Assembly (NCBI GenBank): GCA_036163455.1
Contig: JAYZKL010000018.1
Location: 3,595-67,594 of the forward strand
Source of the DNA: Pseudomonadota bacterium
Lineage (GTDB): Bacteria > Pseudomonadota > Gammaproteobacteria > GCA-002705445 > GCA-002716945
Reading direction: 5' to 3'
DNA: 64,000 bases
The notes under the pieces are model-generated. The model was not told the origin of the DNA and did no database searches. It saw only the letters and a list, made by a program, of their open reading frames with translations. This document shows positions 6,613 to 34,575 of this stretch, piece by piece (the first letter of the stretch is position 1; each line of letters starts with the position of its first letter). Made by a program: the position numbers and the translations under genes.

Positions 6613-7128
6613 ATGGCAGTAGTTGATAAAGTGTTAGTAGGTGAAGCTCTAGTTGTTACCGAAGGTGGCGACAATGAAATTTCACATATTGACCTATTAA
6701 TGGGTCCACGTGGATCAGCAGTTGAAGATGCGTTTTGTAATTCACTATGTAACAACAAAGATGGGTTTACATCTCTTTTAGCTGTAGTTGCACCTAACTT
6801 AGCTTGTAAACCAAGCACAGTTATGTTTAACAAAGTAACAATTAAAGGTGCTAAGCAAGCAGTTCAAATGTTTGGTCCTGCACAAGCAGCTGTAGCAAGA
6901 GCTGTAACTGATTGTGTTGAAGATGGAACAATACCAGAAAAAGAAGCAGAAGATATTTTCATCTGCGTTGGTGTATTTATCCACTGGGATGCAAGTGATG
7001 ATACTAGAATCTATGATTACAACTATGAAGCTACCAAAATGGCAATCAAAAATGCTGTTGCTGGTAAACCAAAAGCTGGAGAAGTTGTAGCAGGAAAATC
7101 TACACAACATCCATTTTCACCAAAATAA
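6613..7128 (+). CDS. fae: Formaldehyde-activating enzyme (5,6,7,8-tetrahydromethanopterin hydro-lyase)
   Basis: Strong similarity to Fae (VGEALV, HIDLxxGPRGS, [24 protein letters not shown], [30 protein letters not shown]). An AGGAGA SD sits 7 nt upstream. It appears monocistronic, with a terminator immediately downstream. Confidence 0.9.
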
Positions 7129-7142
7129 CAATTATGAGAATT

Positions 7143-7180
7143 GCCAACCGTGCTTTAAGCTCGGTTGGCTCTCTCTTTTA
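7143..7180 (+). terminator. Rho-independent terminator downstream of fae
   Basis: GCCAACCG(7143-7150), 11-nt loop, CGGTTGGC(7162-7169), followed by TCTCTCTTTT. The hairpin is GC-rich in an AT-rich background. Its 3' arm overlaps the last codons of the convergent gene 7155..7847. Confidence 0.55.
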
Positions 7181-7847
7181 GGAAACTAAATTTTCGAAGT
7201 TTATTCATAGATAATAAACTAGATACCAATACACCGCTTGCTCCAAGATTTTTTATAAACTTTATATCTAACATAGATCTAATTCCGCCAGCAACATAAT
7301 ATTCAGTTTTATATTTTTTTGTAATAAACTTTTTTATTATATGGAAGTTTGGTTTTGATTTTGTACCTACTCGTGATAAATCCATTATAATTACTTTTCT
7401 TGGATGCGTTCTTATGCATCTATGAATTGATTTTGGACCTATAATCCCATTTTTATAGTCTATGGAGCAAATATGTTTTTTAAACTTTTCTGAACTTAAT
7501 TCAAAATCTTTTGCTTTTTCACTACAAAATACTGGCACATAATTATTATAATTTTTATCTAGCTTGATTTTATTGAGGCCAGAGTCTATCCAAAAACTAA
7601 CTTTTGGAAATTTTTTTAATATTTGCATCAAAATATTATGATTAACTTTATCTGATATTATTGCGTCAAGATCAGCAATGTAGATTATTCTTGGAGAATA
7701 TATATCTATTAAATGAGTAATTATTTCAACAGGCTCTGTGGTATTGTATAGTTTGGGGTTTATTTTTTTATATGTGTTTCTATCGCCTTTTAAAGCTGTA
7801 ACTACTTGACTCTCTAATATGTCTATAACAGGAATGATGTCCATCAA
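7155..7847 (-). CDS. HisA/HisF-like (beta/alpha)8-barrel protein
   Basis: The N-terminus MMDIIPVIDILESQVV resembles the HisA/HisF start (IIPAIDLxxGxVVRL). It is embedded in the H4MPT island. Confidence 0.4.
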   Translation of the reverse strand: MMDIIPVIDILESQVVTALKGDRNTYKKINPKLYNTTEPVEIITHLIDIYSPRIIYIADLDAIISDKVNHNILMQILKKFPKVSFWIDSGLNKIKLDKNYNNYVPVFCSEKAKDFELSSEKFKKHICSIDYKNGIIGPKSIHRCIRTHPRKVIIMDLSRVGTKSKPNFHIIKKFITKKYKTEYYVAGGIRSMLDIKFIKNLGASGVLVSSLLSMNKLRKFSFLKERANRA

Positions 7848-8821
7848 TGATTAAGATACTAATATATGAATATGTTACAGGAGGTGGTTTGATAAATGAA
7901 GATTTAAGTTCAACTTTACTCAATGAAGCCAAATTAATTACATCAAACCTCTATAGCGATATGCGAGCATCGGATGGGGTTTCATTCAATTTTTTCTTAG
8001 ATGAAAGATTAAATAATCTTGTTACATCGGAATCAATCCTTATAAATAGAAAAAATATAAAAAAAATTTATGATAAAGACTTCCTAAAGAAATTTGACTA
8101 TATATTGCCAATACTGCCTGAAACAAATCTTGATTTATATAAGTATGTTAAATTTCTAGAAGAAAATAAAATAAATAAGATTATTTCAGATAAAAAAATA
8201 ATTTCTTTATTATCAAACAAATTATCTTTTTATAATTTTTTCATTAGTCATAATATAAATACAATACCAACATATGCTATTAATGACAGAAGAAAAATAA
8301 AAAAACTAAAAAACCTAATTGTTAAAGATAAATATGGAGCTGGATGTTCTTTTGTTAAAATCTTTAAGGGCCCATCTGACAAAGGTTTTTCTGGTTATAA
8401 TAATAATTATATCGTGCAACCCTATATTCATGGACAGTCATACAGCATATCGGCATTCTTTAGTAGAGATGATATATATTTATTGAGCATTAATAAACAA
8501 GATATAAAAATAAAACAAGGTTTCATTAAATTAAATAAAATTATTGTTAATGACAAAACTGTAGGTTGTACAAAAATATATGTTCTATTAGAAAGAATAA
8601 AATACATACTACCAAAACTATATGGATACATTGGCATAGATATAATAATTAATGATAAGGGCCTACATCTTGTAGAAATAAATCCAAGGTTGACAACTTC
8701 ATATATTGGATTAAGAGAGACTTTAGGAATTAATCTTGTTAATCTAATGATTGGAAAAAAAATAAAGAAAAGAATAGTTAGTGGAAAGAAATCCTGTATC
8801 AATTTAAATGAAACAAGATAA
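7847..8821 (+). CDS. ATP-grasp family protein (third paralog)
   Basis: C-terminal LVEINPRLTTS ATP-grasp motif. Confidence 0.45.
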   Translation: MIKILIYEYVTGGGLINEDLSSTLLNEAKLITSNLYSDMRASDGVSFNFFLDERLNNLVTSESILINRKNIKKIYDKDFLKKFDYILPILPETNLDLYKYVKFLEENKINKIISDKKIISLLSNKLSFYNFFISHNINTIPTYAINDRRKIKKLKNLIVKDKYGAGCSFVKIFKGPSDKGFSGYNNNYIVQPYIHGQSYSISAFFSRDDIYLLSINKQDIKIKQGFIKLNKIIVNDKTVGCTKIYVLLERIKYILPKLYGYIGIDIIINDKGLHLVEINPRLTTSYIGLRETLGINLVNLMIGKKIKKRIVSGKKSCINLNETR

Positions 8822-16816: not shown

Positions 16817-17147
16817 CGAGAGTCAGCAATGCAGTTGCTGCAAATTGCAGAGGAAAGTCCGGGCTCCATAGGCAAGAACGCCAGGTAACACCTGGGAAAC
16901 GTGAGTTTACGGAAAGTGCTACAGAAAATAACCGCCAGTATTTGGTAAGGGTGAAAAGGTGAGGTAAGAGCTCACCACGTATATGGTAACTAATACGGTT
17001 AGAGCAAACCCCGTTCGGAGCAAGGCAAATTTATAGCGTATGTCAGCCTAAGACTTGCTATGTGGTATGCTGCTTGAGGTTTTTGGTGACAAAAATCCTA
17101 GATTAATGACTGCACAAGACAGAACCCGGCTTATTTGCTGGCTCTCA
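16817..17147 (+). ncRNA. rnpB: RNase P RNA (bacterial type A, M1 RNA)
   Basis: Universal motifs GGAAAGTCCGGGCTCCATAGG, AGGTAACACCTGGG, ACAGAAAATAACCGCC, GGTAAGGGTGAAAAGGTGAGGTAAGAGCTCACC and ACAGAACCCGGCTTA. The P1 stem is formed by GCGAGAGTCAGCAA (16817-16829) pairing with TTGCTGGCTCTC (17135-17146). Confidence 0.9.
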
Positions 17148-17263
17148 GCCTATATTCTCATATAAAATTCACTATAAACTGATAAGTTATTGTTTATAAA
17201 CATATTAATCAAATATACTAAAAAACCCACTATATATAACCACAAAACTGCTTGTATTGATCC

Positions 17264-17336
17264 TTGCATATGTTAAAAAAAACACATATAGTGTTGATAA
17301 ATGGTGTTTTTTGTTAAATTGTGGAGAATAATGGTA
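17264..17336 (+). promoter_or_regulatory. Putative mraZ (Pmra) promoter plus MraZ-operator-like direct repeats
   Basis: TTGCAT (17264-17269), 17 nt, TATAGT (17287-17292). Then five TGNTG/TGGTN pentamers at 10-bp periodicity (17292, 17302, 17312, 17322, 17332), resembling the E. coli MraZ GTGGG-N5 direct repeats. Confidence 0.4.
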
Positions 17337-17339
17337 GAT

Positions 17340-17792
17340 ATGTTTAGAGGCATACATAATATAAATCTTGACGGTAAAGGTAGATTAGCTATACCAACTA
17401 AGTATAGAGCTGCTATTAATGACCAATCTTCTGGAAACATGATAATTACTGTCGATCCAGGGGAAAAATGCCTTCTACTTTATCCATTGTCTTCTTGGAA
17501 TGATATAGAGAAGCAAATCAACGACTTACCTGCTTTTCAGAAAAATTCACGTAGAGTACAAAGGCTGTTAGTTGGCCATGCCGAGGATATTCAAATGGAT
17601 AAGGCTGGAAGAATATTAATATCTCAACCTTTGAGATCTATAGCAGAACTAAGCAAAAAAATAACAATGATTGGGCAAGGAAAAAAATTTGAGATTTGGG
17701 GAAATAATATTTGGGAAAATAAAATATCAAAATGGAGAACTGAAGAAACTGATGAATCTGAAGAATCTGTTTTGGGAGGCATTAGAATCTAA
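17340..17792 (+). CDS. mraZ: Transcriptional regulator MraZ
   Basis: MFRGIHNINLDGKGRLAIPTKYR matches the MraZ N-terminus. I chose the internal ATG (MFRG) over the track's longest ORF start at 17301. Confidence 0.85.
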   Translation: MFRGIHNINLDGKGRLAIPTKYRAAINDQSSGNMIITVDPGEKCLLLYPLSSWNDIEKQINDLPAFQKNSRRVQRLLVGHAEDIQMDKAGRILISQPLRSIAELSKKITMIGQGKKFEIWGNNIWENKISKWRTEETDESEESVLGGIRI

Positions 17793-17989
17793 TGGATATT
17801 ACGAGATGTTTTAGAACATTAGGTATAAGTGGACATGAAGATTTAAGTGCAATCAAAAAGGCATTTCTCAAAGTTGCTTTAAAATATCACCCCGATAAAA
17901 CAAAAAATGATATCAATTTACTTCAAAGGTTTATAGAAGCACGTAACGCATATGACAGTATTGTCAAATTTAAAAAGGCGATTAAATGA
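17792..17989 (+). CDS. Stand-alone J-domain (DnaJ-like) mini-protein, 65 aa
   Basis: Canonical J-domain helices and the HPD motif (LKVALKYHPDKTKND...FIEARNAYDSI). The start overlaps the mraZ stop (TAATG) and the stop overlaps the rsmH start (ATGA). Confidence 0.6.
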   Translation: MDITRCFRTLGISGHEDLSAIKKAFLKVALKYHPDKTKNDINLLQRFIEARNAYDSIVKFKKAIK

Positions 17990-18933
17990 ATGATTTAGCT
18001 AAACATATACCAGTTATGCAAAATGAGGCACTAAATGCTCTAAACATACAAGAAGCTGGCATTTATGTTGATGCTACTTTTGGTTTTGGTGGACACTCAC
18101 AAGCCATATTAAATAAATTAAGTACAAGAGGAAGGCTTTATGCAATAGACAAAGATCCATCAACAATAAAAACCAATCAAACAGAATTTTTAGAAGATAC
18201 AAGGTTTACCCTGAAACATGGATGTTTCTCCTCTCTAGAATCCCTTTCAAAAGAGTGGGGAATCTATGGTTCAGTAAACGGTATATTATTTGACCTTGGT
18301 GTTTCAACTGAACATTTAGAAAACCCTAAAAGAGGATTCAGTTTTTTGAGGAAAGGGCCAATTGATATGCGGTTTGATCAGAGTTCAGGTGATTCTGCTA
18401 GTGATTGGCTTGCTACCGCAAGCGAAAGTACGTTAGCTACAATAATCAAAAAATATGGTGACGAACGTTATGCTAAAAGAATAGCAAAAGGTATTGTTAA
18501 GCAGAGGGTGACAGAAAAAATTAGTACTACTGCAGATTTAGTAAATATAATTAATAAATCTATACCAAAAAATGAAACAAAAAAACATAATGCAACACGT
18601 ACATTCCAAGCGATAAGAATACACATAAATCAAGAACTAGAAGTGCTTAGAAGGGCACTGGAAAAAACATATAATATTTTAGCTCCAAAAGGAAGATTAG
18701 TATTAATAACTTATCACTCGTTAGAAGAACGCTTAATAAAAGATTTTATAACTCATACAGATAAAAGTTTATCGGCGCCAAGAGACCTTCCTTTAAGTGA
18801 AAAGTTCCTGACAAAAATGTATAAAATAATAGCCAAGCCAATTAAACCAACATATGAAGAAATTAAAATTAATAAGAAATCTAGGTCAGCAAAATTAAAT
18901 ATTCTGGAGAAGTATAATGAGAATCATAGTTAA
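17986..18933 (+). CDS. rsmH: 16S rRNA (cytosine1402-N4)-methyltransferase
   Basis: HIPVM, YVDATFGFGGHS, FDLGVSxxQL and AIRIxxNxEL motifs of RsmH/MraW. Confidence 0.9.
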   Translation: MNDLAKHIPVMQNEALNALNIQEAGIYVDATFGFGGHSQAILNKLSTRGRLYAIDKDPSTIKTNQTEFLEDTRFTLKHGCFSSLESLSKEWGIYGSVNGILFDLGVSTEHLENPKRGFSFLRKGPIDMRFDQSSGDSASDWLATASESTLATIIKKYGDERYAKRIAKGIVKQRVTEKISTTADLVNIINKSIPKNETKKHNATRTFQAIRIHINQELEVLRRALEKTYNILAPKGRLVLITYHSLEERLIKDFITHTDKSLSAPRDLPLSEKFLTKMYKIIAKPIKPTYEEIKINKKSRSAKLNILEKYNENHS

Positions 18934-19186
18934 TATAACTATCTTATTTGTTATAGCTTTTTCATCTTTCTTAGTTATATATGTTAAGCATCAAAATAGA
19001 ATTATGAATATACAAATTGAGAGCGTAGAAAAGCAATTATCAATAAAAATTAATCAATATAAAGAATTGCTAAATGTTAAAACCACTCTATTGGAAAAAG
19101 AATTAATGAAAGAAGGTTTCAAAAAGAGTTTGGGTATGGATATACCTTCAAAGAATAGAATTATTTATTTAGATTTAGCTGAGTAG
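18917..19186 (+). CDS. ftsL: Cell division protein FtsL
   Basis: 89-aa bitopic protein with an N-terminal TM helix and a coiled-coil, sitting in the canonical position after rsmH. Confidence 0.7.
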   Translation: MRIIVNITILFVIAFSSFLVIYVKHQNRIMNIQIESVEKQLSIKINQYKELLNVKTTLLEKELMKEGFKKSLGMDIPSKNRIIYLDLAE

Positions 19187-19202: not shown

Positions 19203-20351
19203 ATGTTTGAGTTAATTGAAAATTATAGCCAGAATGCAGTGATTAAAGTCATTGGCGTTGGTGGCGGTGGCGGAAATGCTGTTCAATCAATGTTAGAGTC
19301 GAAGATTCATGGTGCTGAATTTATAGTAGCCAATACAGACGCTCAAGCATTGAATGACATAAAAGGAGCCACGACAGTACAATTAGGATCTGAAATTACA
19401 AAGGGACTTGGAGCAGGTGCTGATCCAGAAATAGGCAAACAAGCCGCAGAAGAAGATAGAGACAAAATACAAGATGCTATTCAAGGAGCTGATATGTTAT
19501 TTATTGCTGCTGGGATGGGAGGTGGTACTGGAACAGGTGCTGCGCCTGTTATAGCACAATGCGCACATGACATGGGCATCCTTACCGTTGCAGTAGTGAC
19601 AAAACCATTTGAATGGGAAGGAGTTGAAAGAAGACAACATGCTGATGATGGCATAGCAAAACTAGAGGATTGGGTTGATTCTCTAATTATTCTTCCAAAT
19701 TCTAAACTAGAAGAAGTATTTGGAACTGATGCACCAATTTTTGATGCATTCGGCCAAGCAAATGATGCTCTTCGAGGTGCAGTTAAAGGGATTGCTGAAA
19801 TAATAACCATCAGAGGCTTAATTAATGTTGATTTTGCAGATGTTAAAACTGTAATGTCAGGTAAAGGTAAAGCCATGATGGGCTCAGGTGTAGCAAGAGG
19901 CGAAGGTCGTTCAGAAGAAGCAGTGAAATTGGCTCTTAGTAGTCCATTACTAGAGAATATTGATCTACATGGAGCTAGTGGAGTGCTTGTTAATATAACT
20001 GCAGGTTCAGACTTATCTGTAAGTGAATATAATAGTATTGGAAACACTATTAAAGATATCGCGGCAGATGATGCGACAATCATTACAGGTTGTATTAAAG
20101 AAGAAGACGCAAGTGGTGAACTTAGAGTTACTATCATCGCGACTGGTTTTGATGAAAGTAAAGCATCTGATGAATCTGCTTTAGCTTCAACAACAGAAGA
20201 GAAACAATTAGAAAATCAGGTGATGCCATTAAGACCGGCTCAAGGAACTATGTTTGAAGATAAATCACCACAACTTTCAGATGAAAATTCTGAAAGTAAA
20301 GATGGAGATGATTTAGACATTCCTGCTTTTTTAAGGCAACAAGCTGATTAG
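19203..20351 (+). CDS. ftsZ: Cell division GTPase FtsZ
   Basis: Tubulin signature GGGTGTG, IKVIGVGGGGGNAV, and the conserved C-terminal peptide DIPAFLRQQAD. GGAGG SD upstream. The location between ftsL and ftsI is atypical. Confidence 0.95.
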   Translation: MFELIENYSQNAVIKVIGVGGGGGNAVQSMLESKIHGAEFIVANTDAQALNDIKGATTVQLGSEITKGLGAGADPEIGKQAAEEDRDKIQDAIQGADMLFIAAGMGGGTGTGAAPVIAQCAHDMGILTVAVVTKPFEWEGVERRQHADDGIAKLEDWVDSLIILPNSKLEEVFGTDAPIFDAFGQANDALRGAVKGIAEIITIRGLINVDFADVKTVMSGKGKAMMGSGVARGEGRSEEAVKLALSSPLLENIDLHGASGVLVNITAGSDLSVSEYNSIGNTIKDIAADDATIITGCIKEEDASGELRVTIIATGFDESKASDESALASTTEEKQLENQVMPLRPAQGTMFEDKSPQLSDENSESKDGDDLDIPAFLRQQAD

Positions 20352-20354
20352 AAA

Positions 20355-22094
20355 ATCATAGACAACAGCAGACAAAGCGCATGGCGGCAATATTTCATTT
20401 ACCTTATTGCCGCCGTTTTTTTTGTATTTATAATTACAAGAGTAATATTACTTCAAGTTTTTGATACTGACTGTTTTATTTTAAATAAAGATAAATGTAA
20501 AAATAATCTGAGCTCAGTTGCTGATAAGCGCCAAATTGTTGAAAGAGTAATTGATACAAGTCGTGGAACAATATTTGATAGAAATAAAGAAATTCTAGCA
20601 ATGAGTTTACCAAGAAATACATTATGCATAAACCCATATATGTTACATAAATTATCTAAAAAAGAGATAAATAGATATAAACAATTTCTAGAGTTGATTA
20701 AAACAGATAATAATAAATTTATAAAATTAATCAATAAATATAAACAGAGAAAAGAATTTTATCTTAAAAGAAAAATAAATGATGAGTTAGCTTCAAAAAT
20801 TAGTAAATTAGATTTACCTTTTGTATATTTTATAAAAGAATATCATCGTGTATATCTTGGTGGTGAGGCTTTTTCAAACATAATAGGTTTCACTAATATC
20901 GATGATATTGGTCAAGAGGGAATAGAATTATCAAAAAATGAATTACTCATTTCAAAAAAAGGCTTAAAAAAGATAAAAAAAGATAATTTAGGCAGATCAA
21001 TACAAACTCTTGAAATTGTTAAACAACCAATATCAGGAAAAGATATTTTCTTATCTTTGGATAAAAATATCCAGATAATTGGATATAATATTTTAAAAAA
21101 ATATGTTGAAAGATTCTCTGCAGATAGCGCATCCTTAATTCTTGTCAAAAATCAAACTGGAGAAATTATTTCTATGGTAAATTATCCATCATTTAATCCT
21201 GAATCTCGAAATCAAATGAAGGGTATTAACATAAAAAATAGAGTAGCTACAGAAGTTTTTGAGCCTGGGTCGACAATAAAACCTTTTATAATTCTTTCTG
21301 CTTTAAATACAAATACCATTGGTCTAGATGATTTTGTAGATACTACTCCAGGTATAATCAAAATTGGTGATAAGAAAATTAAGGATCCACGTAATTATGG
21401 GAGACTCACACTATCACAAATTATTGAAAAATCTAGTAATGTAGGAGCTGTTTTAGTATCCAGGAGTTTAAATAAAAAAGATTTATGGAACACTCTAACA
21501 TCTTTGCAGTTTGGACAGAATTTATATACGGGTTTTTCTGGAGAGCAATTTGGTGAACTTAATCATCATTCTCAATGGAAATCAGTCAATCAAGAAACTA
21601 TGGCGTATGGTTATGGAATTTCTACAACTCTTCTTCATTTATCAAGCGCATACTCTATTCTTGCAAATCATGGAAAGTCTATACAACTAACCTATCAGAA
21701 AGTTGAAAATGATGATGAAATCTATCAGGAAGATGTTATTGATCCAATATTATCAAAAGAGATATTAAAAATGATGATGCAAGTAGTTAAGAAAGGAACA
21801 GGTACCAAAGCATCCTTAGATAAGTATACGGTTGCTGGCAAGACAGGAACAGTTCAAATCTTAAAGGAACAAGGCTATACATCAGAAGAGCACAACACAT
21901 TATTTATAGGAGTAGTGCCAGCTACTAATCCACAGTATGTTGCTGCTATAATAGTCAGGAAGCCTGACCCAGGAAAAGGTAAGGCATCTGGTGGAAAAAA
22001 TGCTGCTCCAATTTTTAAAGAATTTATGAGTCAATCACTAAATCTTTTGAAGGTGTACCCAGATAAAAAAATAGTGAAAAATGAAAGAAAATAA
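20355..22094 (+). CDS. ftsI: Peptidoglycan D,D-transpeptidase FtsI (PBP3); start codon uncertain/non-canonical
   Basis: The track ORF starts at ATG 20601. However the conserved FtsI N-terminus (AWRQYFIYLIAAVFFVFIITRVILLQV...SRGTIFDRNKEILAMSLP, aligning to E. coli SWRFALL...GRVAWLQV...SRGMITDRSGRPLAVSVP) is encoded in frame upstream with no ATG/GTG/TTG. The frame is open back to the ftsZ TAG at 20349-20351. Candidate starts are ATC 20355 and ATA 20358. SxxK, SSN and KTGT transpeptidase motifs are present. Confidence 0.8.
   Translation: MIDNSRQSAWRQYFIYLIAAVFFVFIITRVILLQVFDTDCFILNKDKCKNNLSSVADKRQIVERVIDTSRGTIFDRNKEILAMSLPRNTLCINPYMLHKLSKKEINRYKQFLELIKTDNNKFIKLINKYKQRKEFYLKRKINDELASKISKLDLPFVYFIKEYHRVYLGGEAFSNIIGFTNIDDIGQEGIELSKNELLISKKGLKKIKKDNLGRSIQTLEIVKQPISGKDIFLSLDKNIQIIGYNILKKYVERFSADSASLILVKNQTGEIISMVNYPSFNPESRNQMKGINIKNRVATEVFEPGSTIKPFIILSALNTNTIGLDDFVDTTPGIIKIGDKKIKDPRNYGRLTLSQIIEKSSNVGAVLVSRSLNKKDLWNTLTSLQFGQNLYTGFSGEQFGELNHHSQWKSVNQETMAYGYGISTTLLHLSSAYSILANHGKSIQLTYQKVENDDEIYQEDVIDPILSKEILKMMMQVVKKGTGTKASLDKYTVAGKTGTVQILKEQGYTSEEHNTLFIGVVPATNPQYVAAIIVRKPDPGKGKASGGKNAAPIFKEFMSQSLNLLKVYPDKKIVKNERK
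20383..20423 (+). terminator. Intrinsic-terminator-like GC-rich hairpin plus T8, immediately after ftsZ and inside the ftsI 5' coding region
   Basis: GGCGGCAATA (20383-20392), 12-nt loop, TATTGCCGCC (20405-20414), G, TTTTTTTT (20416-20423). It encodes YLIAAVFF of the FtsI TM helix. Confidence 0.5.
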
Positions 22095-33321: not shown

Positions 33322-34575
33322 ATGATCAATAACCTTGATAAGAGAGAAGCCATTGTAGCCTTAGATGTTGGAACGACGAAAATCCTTTGTCTTGTTGCTG
33401 ATTATAATGATGATGGAAAGCTCAGGATTGTAGGAATTGGCGATGAACCTTGTGATGGACTTGAAAGAGGCGTCATTTCTGAAATTCAAACTACAGTTTC
33501 TAGTATCAAGCGTTCTGTTAGCAAAGCAAGAAGTATTTCATCTCACAAAATTGAATCAGTAACTACGGGTATAGCTGGTAGCCACATACAATGCTTTAAT
33601 GCTAATGCTGAAATTAATATAACAAATGATGAGGTTACAAACGAAGATAAAATAAAGGTTGTTGAGAATGCTAGAGATATACAAATTCCTAATGATCAAG
33701 AAGTGCTTCATGTTATACCTCAATACTATTCAATTGATGGACAGATTGGAATAAGGGAACCAATAGGAATGGCTGGTGCAAGATTAGGGGTAAATGTGCA
33801 TATAATAACATCTTCAACTACAGCTAAAAAGAATTTAACCAAATGCATAGAGAACAGTTTACTGGATGTCGACCACTTTGTCTTAGAACCCGTTGCTTCT
33901 AGTTATTCTGTTTTAACCGAAGAAGAGCGTTCCCTTGGTGTCTGTTTAGTTGACATTGGGGGCGGAACAACAGATGTGGCAATTTTTACAGATGGAACAA
34001 TTAAGCATACATCTGTTATTCAGATTGCAGGCCAAATGATAACTAACGATATCAAAATTGGTTTACGGACTTCAACTGAAGCGGCTGAAGAAATAAAAAT
34101 ACAACATGGCTCTCTAATAAATAACCCTGAAGATAGCGAAAAGATGATAAAAGTACCTTCTATTTCAGATAAACCTGACAATGAAGTTAGCCTAACTAAT
34201 TTAAGTCATATTATAGGATGCAGGATTGATGAAATTTTTGAAAAAATACAGGTAGAAATCGAAAATAGTGGTCATTCTAGTAAAATTAGATCGGGAATAG
34301 TTTTTACTGGTGGAGGTGCAAGATTATCTGGACTTGATGATTATGCTGAAGCAAAATTTTCATGCCCAGCAAGAATTGGTGCACCAGCGAATATTCCAGG
34401 AATTGGAAATGTAAGTGGAAAAGCTAGGTACTCTACTGCAGTTGGTCTTCTACTCTACAGGGAAGAAAAATTAATGAACATGCCTCATAGAAGTTCACTA
34501 GAAGATAATCCCATATTATCCTTTATTAATAATTTTTGGACTAAACTATCTGGATATTTCCATAAAGAACTTTAA
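33322..34575 (+). CDS. ftsA: Cell division protein FtsA
   Basis: Actin-fold motifs (VALDVGTTKI, CLVDIGGGTTDVAIF). Confidence 0.9.
   Translation: MINNLDKREAIVALDVGTTKILCLVADYNDDGKLRIVGIGDEPCDGLERGVISEIQTTVSSIKRSVSKARSISSHKIESVTTGIAGSHIQCFNANAEINITNDEVTNEDKIKVVENARDIQIPNDQEVLHVIPQYYSIDGQIGIREPIGMAGARLGVNVHIITSSTTAKKNLTKCIENSLLDVDHFVLEPVASSYSVLTEEERSLGVCLVDIGGGTTDVAIFTDGTIKHTSVIQIAGQMITNDIKIGLRTSTEAAEEIKIQHGSLINNPEDSEKMIKVPSISDKPDNEVSLTNLSHIIGCRIDEIFEKIQVEIENSGHSSKIRSGIVFTGGGARLSGLDDYAEAKFSCPARIGAPANIPGIGNVSGKARYSTAVGLLLYREEKLMNMPHRSSLEDNPILSFINNFWTKLSGYFHKEL

Follow-up and report, generated by a model that had tools for sequence, protein, structure and literature searches.

A covarying RNA hairpin encoded in the ftsI membrane-helix codons behind ftsZ: a candidate partial terminator in a clade of marine proteobacteria

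Why a GC-rich, terminator-like inverted repeat should lie inside the codons of an essential cell division gene is the question raised by the ftsZ-ftsI junction of contig JAYZKL010000018.1, whose source is an uncultured, AT-rich marine proteobacterium with an FtsI that matched solely proteins from metagenome-assembled genomes and metagenomes. The window is the whole 64-kb stretch of DNA analyzed; all coordinates refer to it (plus strand unless stated), and labels such as L001 denote related contigs or loci from metagenomes. In the window, ftsZ is followed at once by ftsI, and the hairpin lies within the first codons of the latter. Based on sequence comparison, it is interpreted at about an even chance as an attenuator embedded in ftsI, a partial intrinsic terminator that also provides ftsZ transcripts with a 3'-end hairpin, and it probably keeps ftsZ expressed far more strongly than the genes that follow.

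Sequence inspection and RNAfold revealed the perfect 10-bp stem and T8 run at 20383-20423 exactly as claimed in the preliminary description of this DNA. The 5' arm (20381..20392, +; perfect core GGCGGCAATA at 20383-20392) occupies Trp-Arg-Gln-Tyr codons and the 3' arm (20405..20416, +; perfect core TATTGCCGCC at 20405-20414) Leu-Ile-Ala-Ala codons, both being supported by sequence, fold, and covariation. Between them lies a 12-nucleotide (nt) loop, TTTCATTTACCT (also given as UUUCAUUUACCU), at 20393..20404 (+; sequence and fold), while the U8 tract (20416..20423, +; sequence), preceded by G20415, is formed by Val-Phe-Phe codons. RNAfold lengthened the perfect core to 12 bp by the pairs A20381-U20416 and U20382-G20415, giving a stem that contains six G-C pairs in a window with a GC content of 0.26-0.35. 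The minimum free energy (MFE) of the hairpin was -18.6 kcal/mol (z = -3.7; 0/200 shuffles equally stable) and the same hairpin was present in the MFE and centroid folds of its 201-nt context. On the coding strand, the stem starts 29 nt 3' of the ftsZ stop, too far downstream to be covered by a ribosome that terminates on ftsZ.

A scan of both strands for stems that span 7 bp or more and include four or more GC pairs, with a loop of 3-14 nt and six or more T in the next 9 nt, identified two qualifying sites only in 128 kb of strand, the ftsI hairpin and one at 7143-7169. Twenty block shuffles gave a mean of 0.6 qualifying sites and a stem of at least 10 bp in 1/20. The ftsI hairpin was missed by the built-in terminator scan because its loop limit is 8 nt. 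An assembly artefact was discounted since the junction in the independent Tara assembly L072 was identical to that in the window. Comparison with Rfam 15 left the hairpin below the gathering thresholds, the only passes in the window being rnpB and one tRNA, and a permissive local Rfam search at the hairpin gave sub-threshold noise only. A search for a repetitive extragenic palindromic (REP)-like family in the 64 kb returned one match at three or fewer mismatches, and no similar inverted repeat was found in the window.

Translation places the hairpin at the beginning of the FtsI membrane anchor. In the ftsI frame, the hairpin region reads W-R-Q-Y-F-I-Y-L-I-A-A-V-F-F, that is W-R-QYFIYLIAAVFF of the anchor, and the anchor as a whole (20382..20441, +) comprises W-R, 17 hydrophobic residues QYFIYLIAAVFFVFIIT (20388-20438), and then R. 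The 3' arm and T8 correspond to TAC CTT ATT GCC GCC GTT TTT TTT, and the preliminary description of this segment as YLIAAVFF with a rare GCC GCC pair agrees with the translation: GCC makes up 8.7% of Ala codons and GCC-GCC accounts for 0/40 Ala-Ala dicodons in the window open reading frames (ORFs). The 5' arm carries a further rare codon, CGG (1.3% of Arg codons). Alignment with the NCBIfam FtsI and PBP2 profiles begins at residue 10 or 11 in the frame open from 20352, at profile position 21 or 26, so that the W-R-helix segment is genuine ftsI rather than sequence that once flanked ftsZ on its 3' side. Coding selection is clear between the helix and 20601, and a PDB sequence search gave an alignment that begins after the membrane helix and is thus uninformative on the anchor.

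Comparative analysis of relatives provided the main evidence for function. To sample related loci, metagenome contigs were scanned with a degenerate DNA pattern that covers only the C-terminal peptide of FtsZ and no part of the hairpin. The loci yielded a codon-anchored alignment free of gaps, which comprises 57 distinct sequences and has no indels from the Trp codon to the conserved TDCF motif (alignment A1). The stem register is constant in all lineages, with column c pairing with column 71-c in the same codon register, and RNAalifold found the same stem unaided. The nine core pairs are about 98% paired (range 97-100%) and double compensatory changes were identified at seven of them; the pair 26-45, for instance, occurs as AU, UA, GC, GU, and UG and the pair 29-42 as AU, CG, UA, and UG. 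The covariation score was 0.475 compared to 0.23 for column shuffles (0/500 reach 0.475) and 0.05-0.23 for slid registers. Across the clade, the median stem is 12 bp with -17.2 kcal/mol.

The preliminary description would have been refuted by a hairpin lost in relatives that retain the amino acids, and the reverse was observed: compensatory changes preserve the stem also in lineages with different amino acids (WRQYFIYLIAA, WRRSFFYAIVS, IRLLLFSIVAF, and WRLLLFLIIAS). The synonymous third position of Arg covaries with the second position of Ala/Val ten codons downstream, for which no constraint on the protein accounts. Within the core, G·U cells outnumber A·C cells by 42 to 5 and the target of selection is consequently the sense-strand RNA rather than duplex DNA or antisense RNA. 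Judged by these substitutions, the hairpin is no coincidence but a genuine element on which selection acts. A separate observation concerns its 5' flank, where two sub-clades have ACCTCC, identical to the core of the 16S anti-Shine-Dalgarno sequence, immediately before the hairpin, framed as ACC TCC TGG in L023, L039-L043, L046, L062, and L064 and as A CCT CCA TGG in L024, L027, L042, L045, L066, and L071. Its occurrence in two reading frames suggests a constraint at the nucleotide rather than the protein level.

The hairpin is set in a rearranged division and cell wall (dcw) cluster. As the preliminary description had recognized, ftsZ (382 amino acids (aa); 19203..20351, +; TAG 20349-20351; TIGR00065, E 7.6e-123), with a strong Shine-Dalgarno (SD) sequence GGAGG upstream, has moved from its usual interval between ftsA and lpxC to that between ftsL (18917-19186, +) and ftsI (20355..22094, +, as it must be translated), and ftsA (33322-34575, +) directly adjoins lpxC (from 34680, +) with a 104-nt spacer. 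The genes after ftsZ run on one strand as ftsI-murE-murF-mraY-murD-ftsW-murG-murC-murB-ddl-ftsQ-ftsA with tiny or overlapping junctions, and the ORF list holds no gene on the minus strand at the hairpin site. The order ftsL-ftsZ-ftsI was found in every related contig fetched and ftsI lay immediately behind ftsZ in 65/66 loci recovered by the ftsZ C-terminus pattern search. Protein demand is high for FtsZ and low for FtsI and the late dcw products, and the hairpin therefore follows a gene of high demand and precedes genes of low demand in the same operon. The additional proposal that it resembles the terminator normally ending the dcw operon after ftsZ does not fit the arrangement in Escherichia coli, in which the cluster continues past ftsZ into lpxC/envA.

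Further upstream, the cluster begins with mraZ (17301-17792, +) and rsmH (17986-18933, +). Between these two genes lies a 65-aa ORF with a DnaJ (J-domain) match (17792-17989, +), conserved in L001, L004, and L007, whose overlap with either neighbor is 1-4 nt. The apparent 530-nt gap before the cluster is explained by the RNase P RNA gene rnpB (16819-17149; 293.6 bits), directly upstream of mraZ. In the related contig L004, murF was called as two ORFs of 136 and 299 aa (6881-8193), for which a frameshift or an assembly error is possible.

In the proposed mechanism, RNA polymerase from the mraZ promoter region would transcribe mraZ, the small dnaJ-like gene, rsmH, ftsL, and ftsZ, after which a fraction of the polymerases would be released at the U-tract (20416-20424) and the remaining hairpin would shield the ftsZ mRNA against 3' exonucleases. 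Only read-through transcripts would carry ftsI, murE, murF, and onward to ftsA, and on these ftsI would be poorly translated for lack of a canonical start codon. Termination can only be partial because ftsI starts upstream of the helix, such that every ftsI mRNA contains the hairpin. A ribosome initiating on ftsI may melt the stem and favor read-through. As the predicted outcome, FtsZ would greatly outnumber FtsI and the products of the late dcw genes, with no internal ftsZ promoters being involved. Among the roles offered in the preliminary description, the attenuator is accordingly kept as first choice and the stability element as second, while that of a relic of the ftsZ translocation was abandoned.

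The signal expected of a terminator was sought in the sequence behind the stem. The window hairpin displays the stable GC-rich stem of about 5-14 bp, the U-tract, and the position past a gene end of an intrinsic terminator. In the alignment, the 8 nt after the stem contain a mean of 4.86 U compared to 3.76 in phase-matched windows later in the same helix, and at least 6/8 U were found in 44% (25/57) of the lineages vs. 12% of the phase-matched controls. U7-U8 follows the stem in the window, L001, and L004; the 17-bp stems of L053, L074, and L083 are followed by U6 or more; and the homologous hairpin of L030 was itself flagged by the built-in terminator scan (13 bp, loop 4, tail TTTTGTTTTT). 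The loop in relatives is often closed to 4-8 nt by extra pairs, and several have loops of this size.

Several observations weigh against the attenuator. The U enrichment has a paired Wilcoxon p of 8e-6 that ignores phylogenetic relatedness, and 14/57 lineages have three or fewer U in eight (e.g., GTCTCC-ATAACATTCC), from which it follows that canonical termination is not a function conserved clade-wide. The T8 of the window is near-automatic from Val-Phe-Phe, as TTT makes up 86% of Phe codons. The 12-nt loop exceeds the 3-8 nt typical of intrinsic terminators, and the short loop that marks these is thus lacking. Finally, a genome scan and protein searches for an outgroup with adjacent ftsL and ftsI returned clade members only, and the link between the hairpin and the move of ftsZ is a putative one. 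By this comparison, conservation lies in the stem, and a canonical U-tract, though frequent, is not obligatory.

Alternatively, the hairpin may act in mRNA stability or processing only, blocking 3'-to-5' exonucleases so that the 5' segment containing ftsZ outlives ftsI-murE with no termination at all. The stem is universal and the U-tract is not, in the window lineage the T8 would arise incidentally from Phe codons under the codon bias of the genome, and a median stem of 12 bp with about -17 kcal/mol is sufficient to stall exonucleases, as in the puf and malEFG cases. What this explanation leaves unaccounted for is the significant enrichment of U right after the stem and the canonical U-tract in the window, L001, L004, L030, and L053/L074/L083. 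As the sole function it is rather unlikely, although it is compatible with termination and the two roles are not exclusive.

The second qualifying site in the window, at 7143-7169 (+), consists of GCCAACCG, 11 nt, and CGGTTGGC, after which comes TCTCTCTTT. Its position at a convergent gene end, 15 nt past the stop of fae (formaldehyde-activating enzyme, 6613-7128), is typical of terminators, and the loop and the 3' arm extend over the stop and final codons of the convergent gene 7155-7847. This placement suggests that terminator-like signals may be tucked into neighboring coding sequence in this compact genome.

The junction has a second peculiarity that the preliminary description had not noted and that bears on the mechanism, the missing canonical start of ftsI. 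No ATG, GTG, or TTG was found in the ftsI frame from the ftsZ stop (20349-20351, in the same frame) to 20601, and the first canonical start, ATG 20601, lies past the membrane helix. Public annotation starts ftsI there, yielding a 497-aa product (P0001) without the helix. A canonical start before the helix is likewise absent in most relatives (L001, L004, L016-L019, and most of L020-L085), whose FtsI gene calls are truncated at many internal positions (MSLPRK..., MLQGF..., and MIVRVILLQ...). Where canonical starts are present, they lie in or against the 5' arm, as ATG at codon -4 in L007, -1 in L086, and 0 in L075 and as TTG at codon -6 in L088. Codon -4 from the Trp, the probable ancestral start, is AGA in the window (20370..20372, +) and, within its super-group, ATG in L007, ATA in L017/L036, AAA in L004/L016, and AGA in L001.

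The best candidate for a non-canonical start is the ATC of ATC ATA (20355..20360, +; codons -9 and -8), 4 nt past the ftsZ stop. ATC 20355-20357 is favored because all ATG-less members of the window's super-group have an in-frame ATT or ATC at codon -9 and single-nucleotide indels in this super-group are confined between the ftsZ stop and codon -9. The distance from the ftsZ stop to the Trp codon in the large sister group is 22, 28, or 31 nt, in every case 1 modulo 3, and the only near-cognates shared there are CTG within the last ftsZ codons and, where ftsZ ends in GAT-TAR, ATT. In the 22-30 nt that separate the ftsZ stop from the Trp codon, codon position 3 differs most, and position 2 more than position 1, which is a weak indication that this tail may be translated. 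FtsI would then be made at a very low rate from a weak start beside the ftsZ stop.

Two other routes to FtsI synthesis were considered and rejected. Initiation at 20381, where an ATG lies out of frame, with a subsequent +1 shift at the T-run would give an N-terminus (MAAIFHLPYCRRFF...) that is not helix-like; the ORF of this ATG is not conserved (seven codons in L007), the ATG is absent in L010, L023-type, and L077 sequences, and the A before TGG is explained by its pairing with the T at column 53. A fusion of FtsZ and FtsI by read-through or frameshifting was ruled out by the occurrence of ftsI in all three frames relative to ftsZ among the lineages.

A missing start next to a conserved stem also raises the possibility that the hairpin controls translation of ftsI, either by occluding the start or by holding ribosomes that terminate on ftsZ near a weak start for re-initiation. 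Besides the general lack of a canonical start, the canonical starts lying in or against the 5' arm (L007, L086, L075, and L088) and the SD-like character of this arm in most lineages (GGAGA or GGAGG) speak for such a role. However, the candidate non-canonical starts are situated 26-36 nt upstream of the stem with no fixed spacing, the window ATC 20355 at 26 nt being outside the 30S footprint, an elongating ribosome easily unwinds such a stem, and the U enrichment is left unexplained. Translational control was therefore considered unlikely.

A more elaborate and likewise unlikely proposal joins hairpin and missing start into one device, a ribosome-gated attenuator of ftsI and the late dcw operon. 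Ribosomes would rarely re-initiate after ftsZ at a non-AUG codon (ATC, ATT, or CTG) abutting or overlapping the ftsZ stop. When they did not, the hairpin would form and end or cap the transcript, and when they did, the ribosome would melt the stem and allow ftsI and the whole late dcw operon to be transcribed. The move of ftsZ to the front of the operon together with this device may have taken the place of the internal promoters from which E. coli transcribes ftsZ. If true, routine translation of an essential division gene in an abundant ocean clade would begin at a non-canonical start.

A DNA-level element (a cruciform, a single-stranded DNA hairpin, or a protein operator) or an RNA hairpin from the opposite strand is very improbable. 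An inverted repeat can pair on both strands, but the excess of G·T over A·C in the core (42 vs. 5) is compatible with plus-strand RNA only, the arm sequences vary among lineages and hence offer no fixed protein site, and the repeat is single-copy, not REP-like, and faces no minus-strand gene. A sigma-70-like promoter match was also noted over the 3' arm and T-run (TTGCCG-16-TATAAT, 20407-20434) and rejected; its -10 element is not conserved in L001 and L004, promoter-like hits in the window are at or below shuffle expectation, and the match is probably due to chance. That the hairpin is itself a chance inverted repeat, a coding by-product, or a frozen relic of the ftsZ translocation is scarcely credible since, although T-runs arise easily in AT-rich membrane-helix codons and one of the 20 shuffled windows held a comparable stem, the arms contain rare codons, still co-evolve at 7/9 core pairs over 57 lineages with differing residues, and belong to a segment that aligns to the FtsI N-terminus.

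The order and regulation of the dcw cluster are a long-standing topic, and here a whole clade of abundant marine bacteria has a rearranged cluster with ftsZ second-to-front. The partial terminator favored here offers a testable design for keeping FtsZ far above FtsI. The locus is also a clean natural case of dual coding in which RNA structure limits the residues, an Ala-Ala, Val-Ala, or Val-Ser pair being matched with Trp-Arg codons. In databases, FtsI of this clade is mis-annotated as N-terminally truncated and without its membrane anchor because gene callers disallow the start actually used. In addition, such elements in streamlined genomes escape terminator finders that allow short loops only and searches confined to intergenic sequence.

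Among known systems, intrinsic terminators share with the ftsI hairpin the GC-rich stem, the immediate U8, and a position shortly past a stop codon on the coding strand and beyond the terminating ribosome. In contrast to them, the ftsI hairpin lies wholly within the membrane-helix codons of the next essential gene and so cannot be a full stop, has a 12-nt loop, and has a poor U-tract in about a quarter of the related lineages. Intercistronic mRNA-stabilizing hairpins, such as those of the Rhodobacter puf operon and the E. coli malE-malF REP, similarly stand at the 3' edge of the more abundant segment and do not strictly need a U-tract, whereas the ftsI hairpin is intragenic, belongs to no REP family, and has an enriched U-tract. 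Ribosome-sensitive attenuators, known from leader-peptide attenuation, may be comparable in that a terminator hairpin also lies in translated sequence and would be suppressed by the ribosome. Unlike these, the ftsI hairpin has neither a leader peptide nor an alternative antiterminator and the translated sequence is the regulated gene itself.

A further parallel is with terminators and attenuators internal to operons, whose mode of action the ftsI hairpin is proposed to share; T1 of rpsU-dnaG-rpoD and the rplL-rpoB attenuator are E. coli examples. Internal terminators with long stems and weaker U-tracts set operon stoichiometry, as for the stem-loops after the genes for substrate-binding proteins belonging to ATP-binding cassette (ABC) importers in Ruminiclostridium (PMC9045158). 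The ftsI hairpin resembles them as a stem-loop right behind a gene needed in excess, with long stems across the clade and a lower U content. It differs in that theirs are in intergenic spacers while it lies in the codons of the downstream gene, which in addition lacks a canonical start. No description of a hairpin at the ftsZ/ftsI junction or of the gene order ftsL-ftsZ-ftsI was found in the literature. What is new compared to these systems is the combination of an element encoded in helix codons, its covariation across the clade, the rearranged ftsZ/ftsI junction, and the lost canonical start of ftsI.

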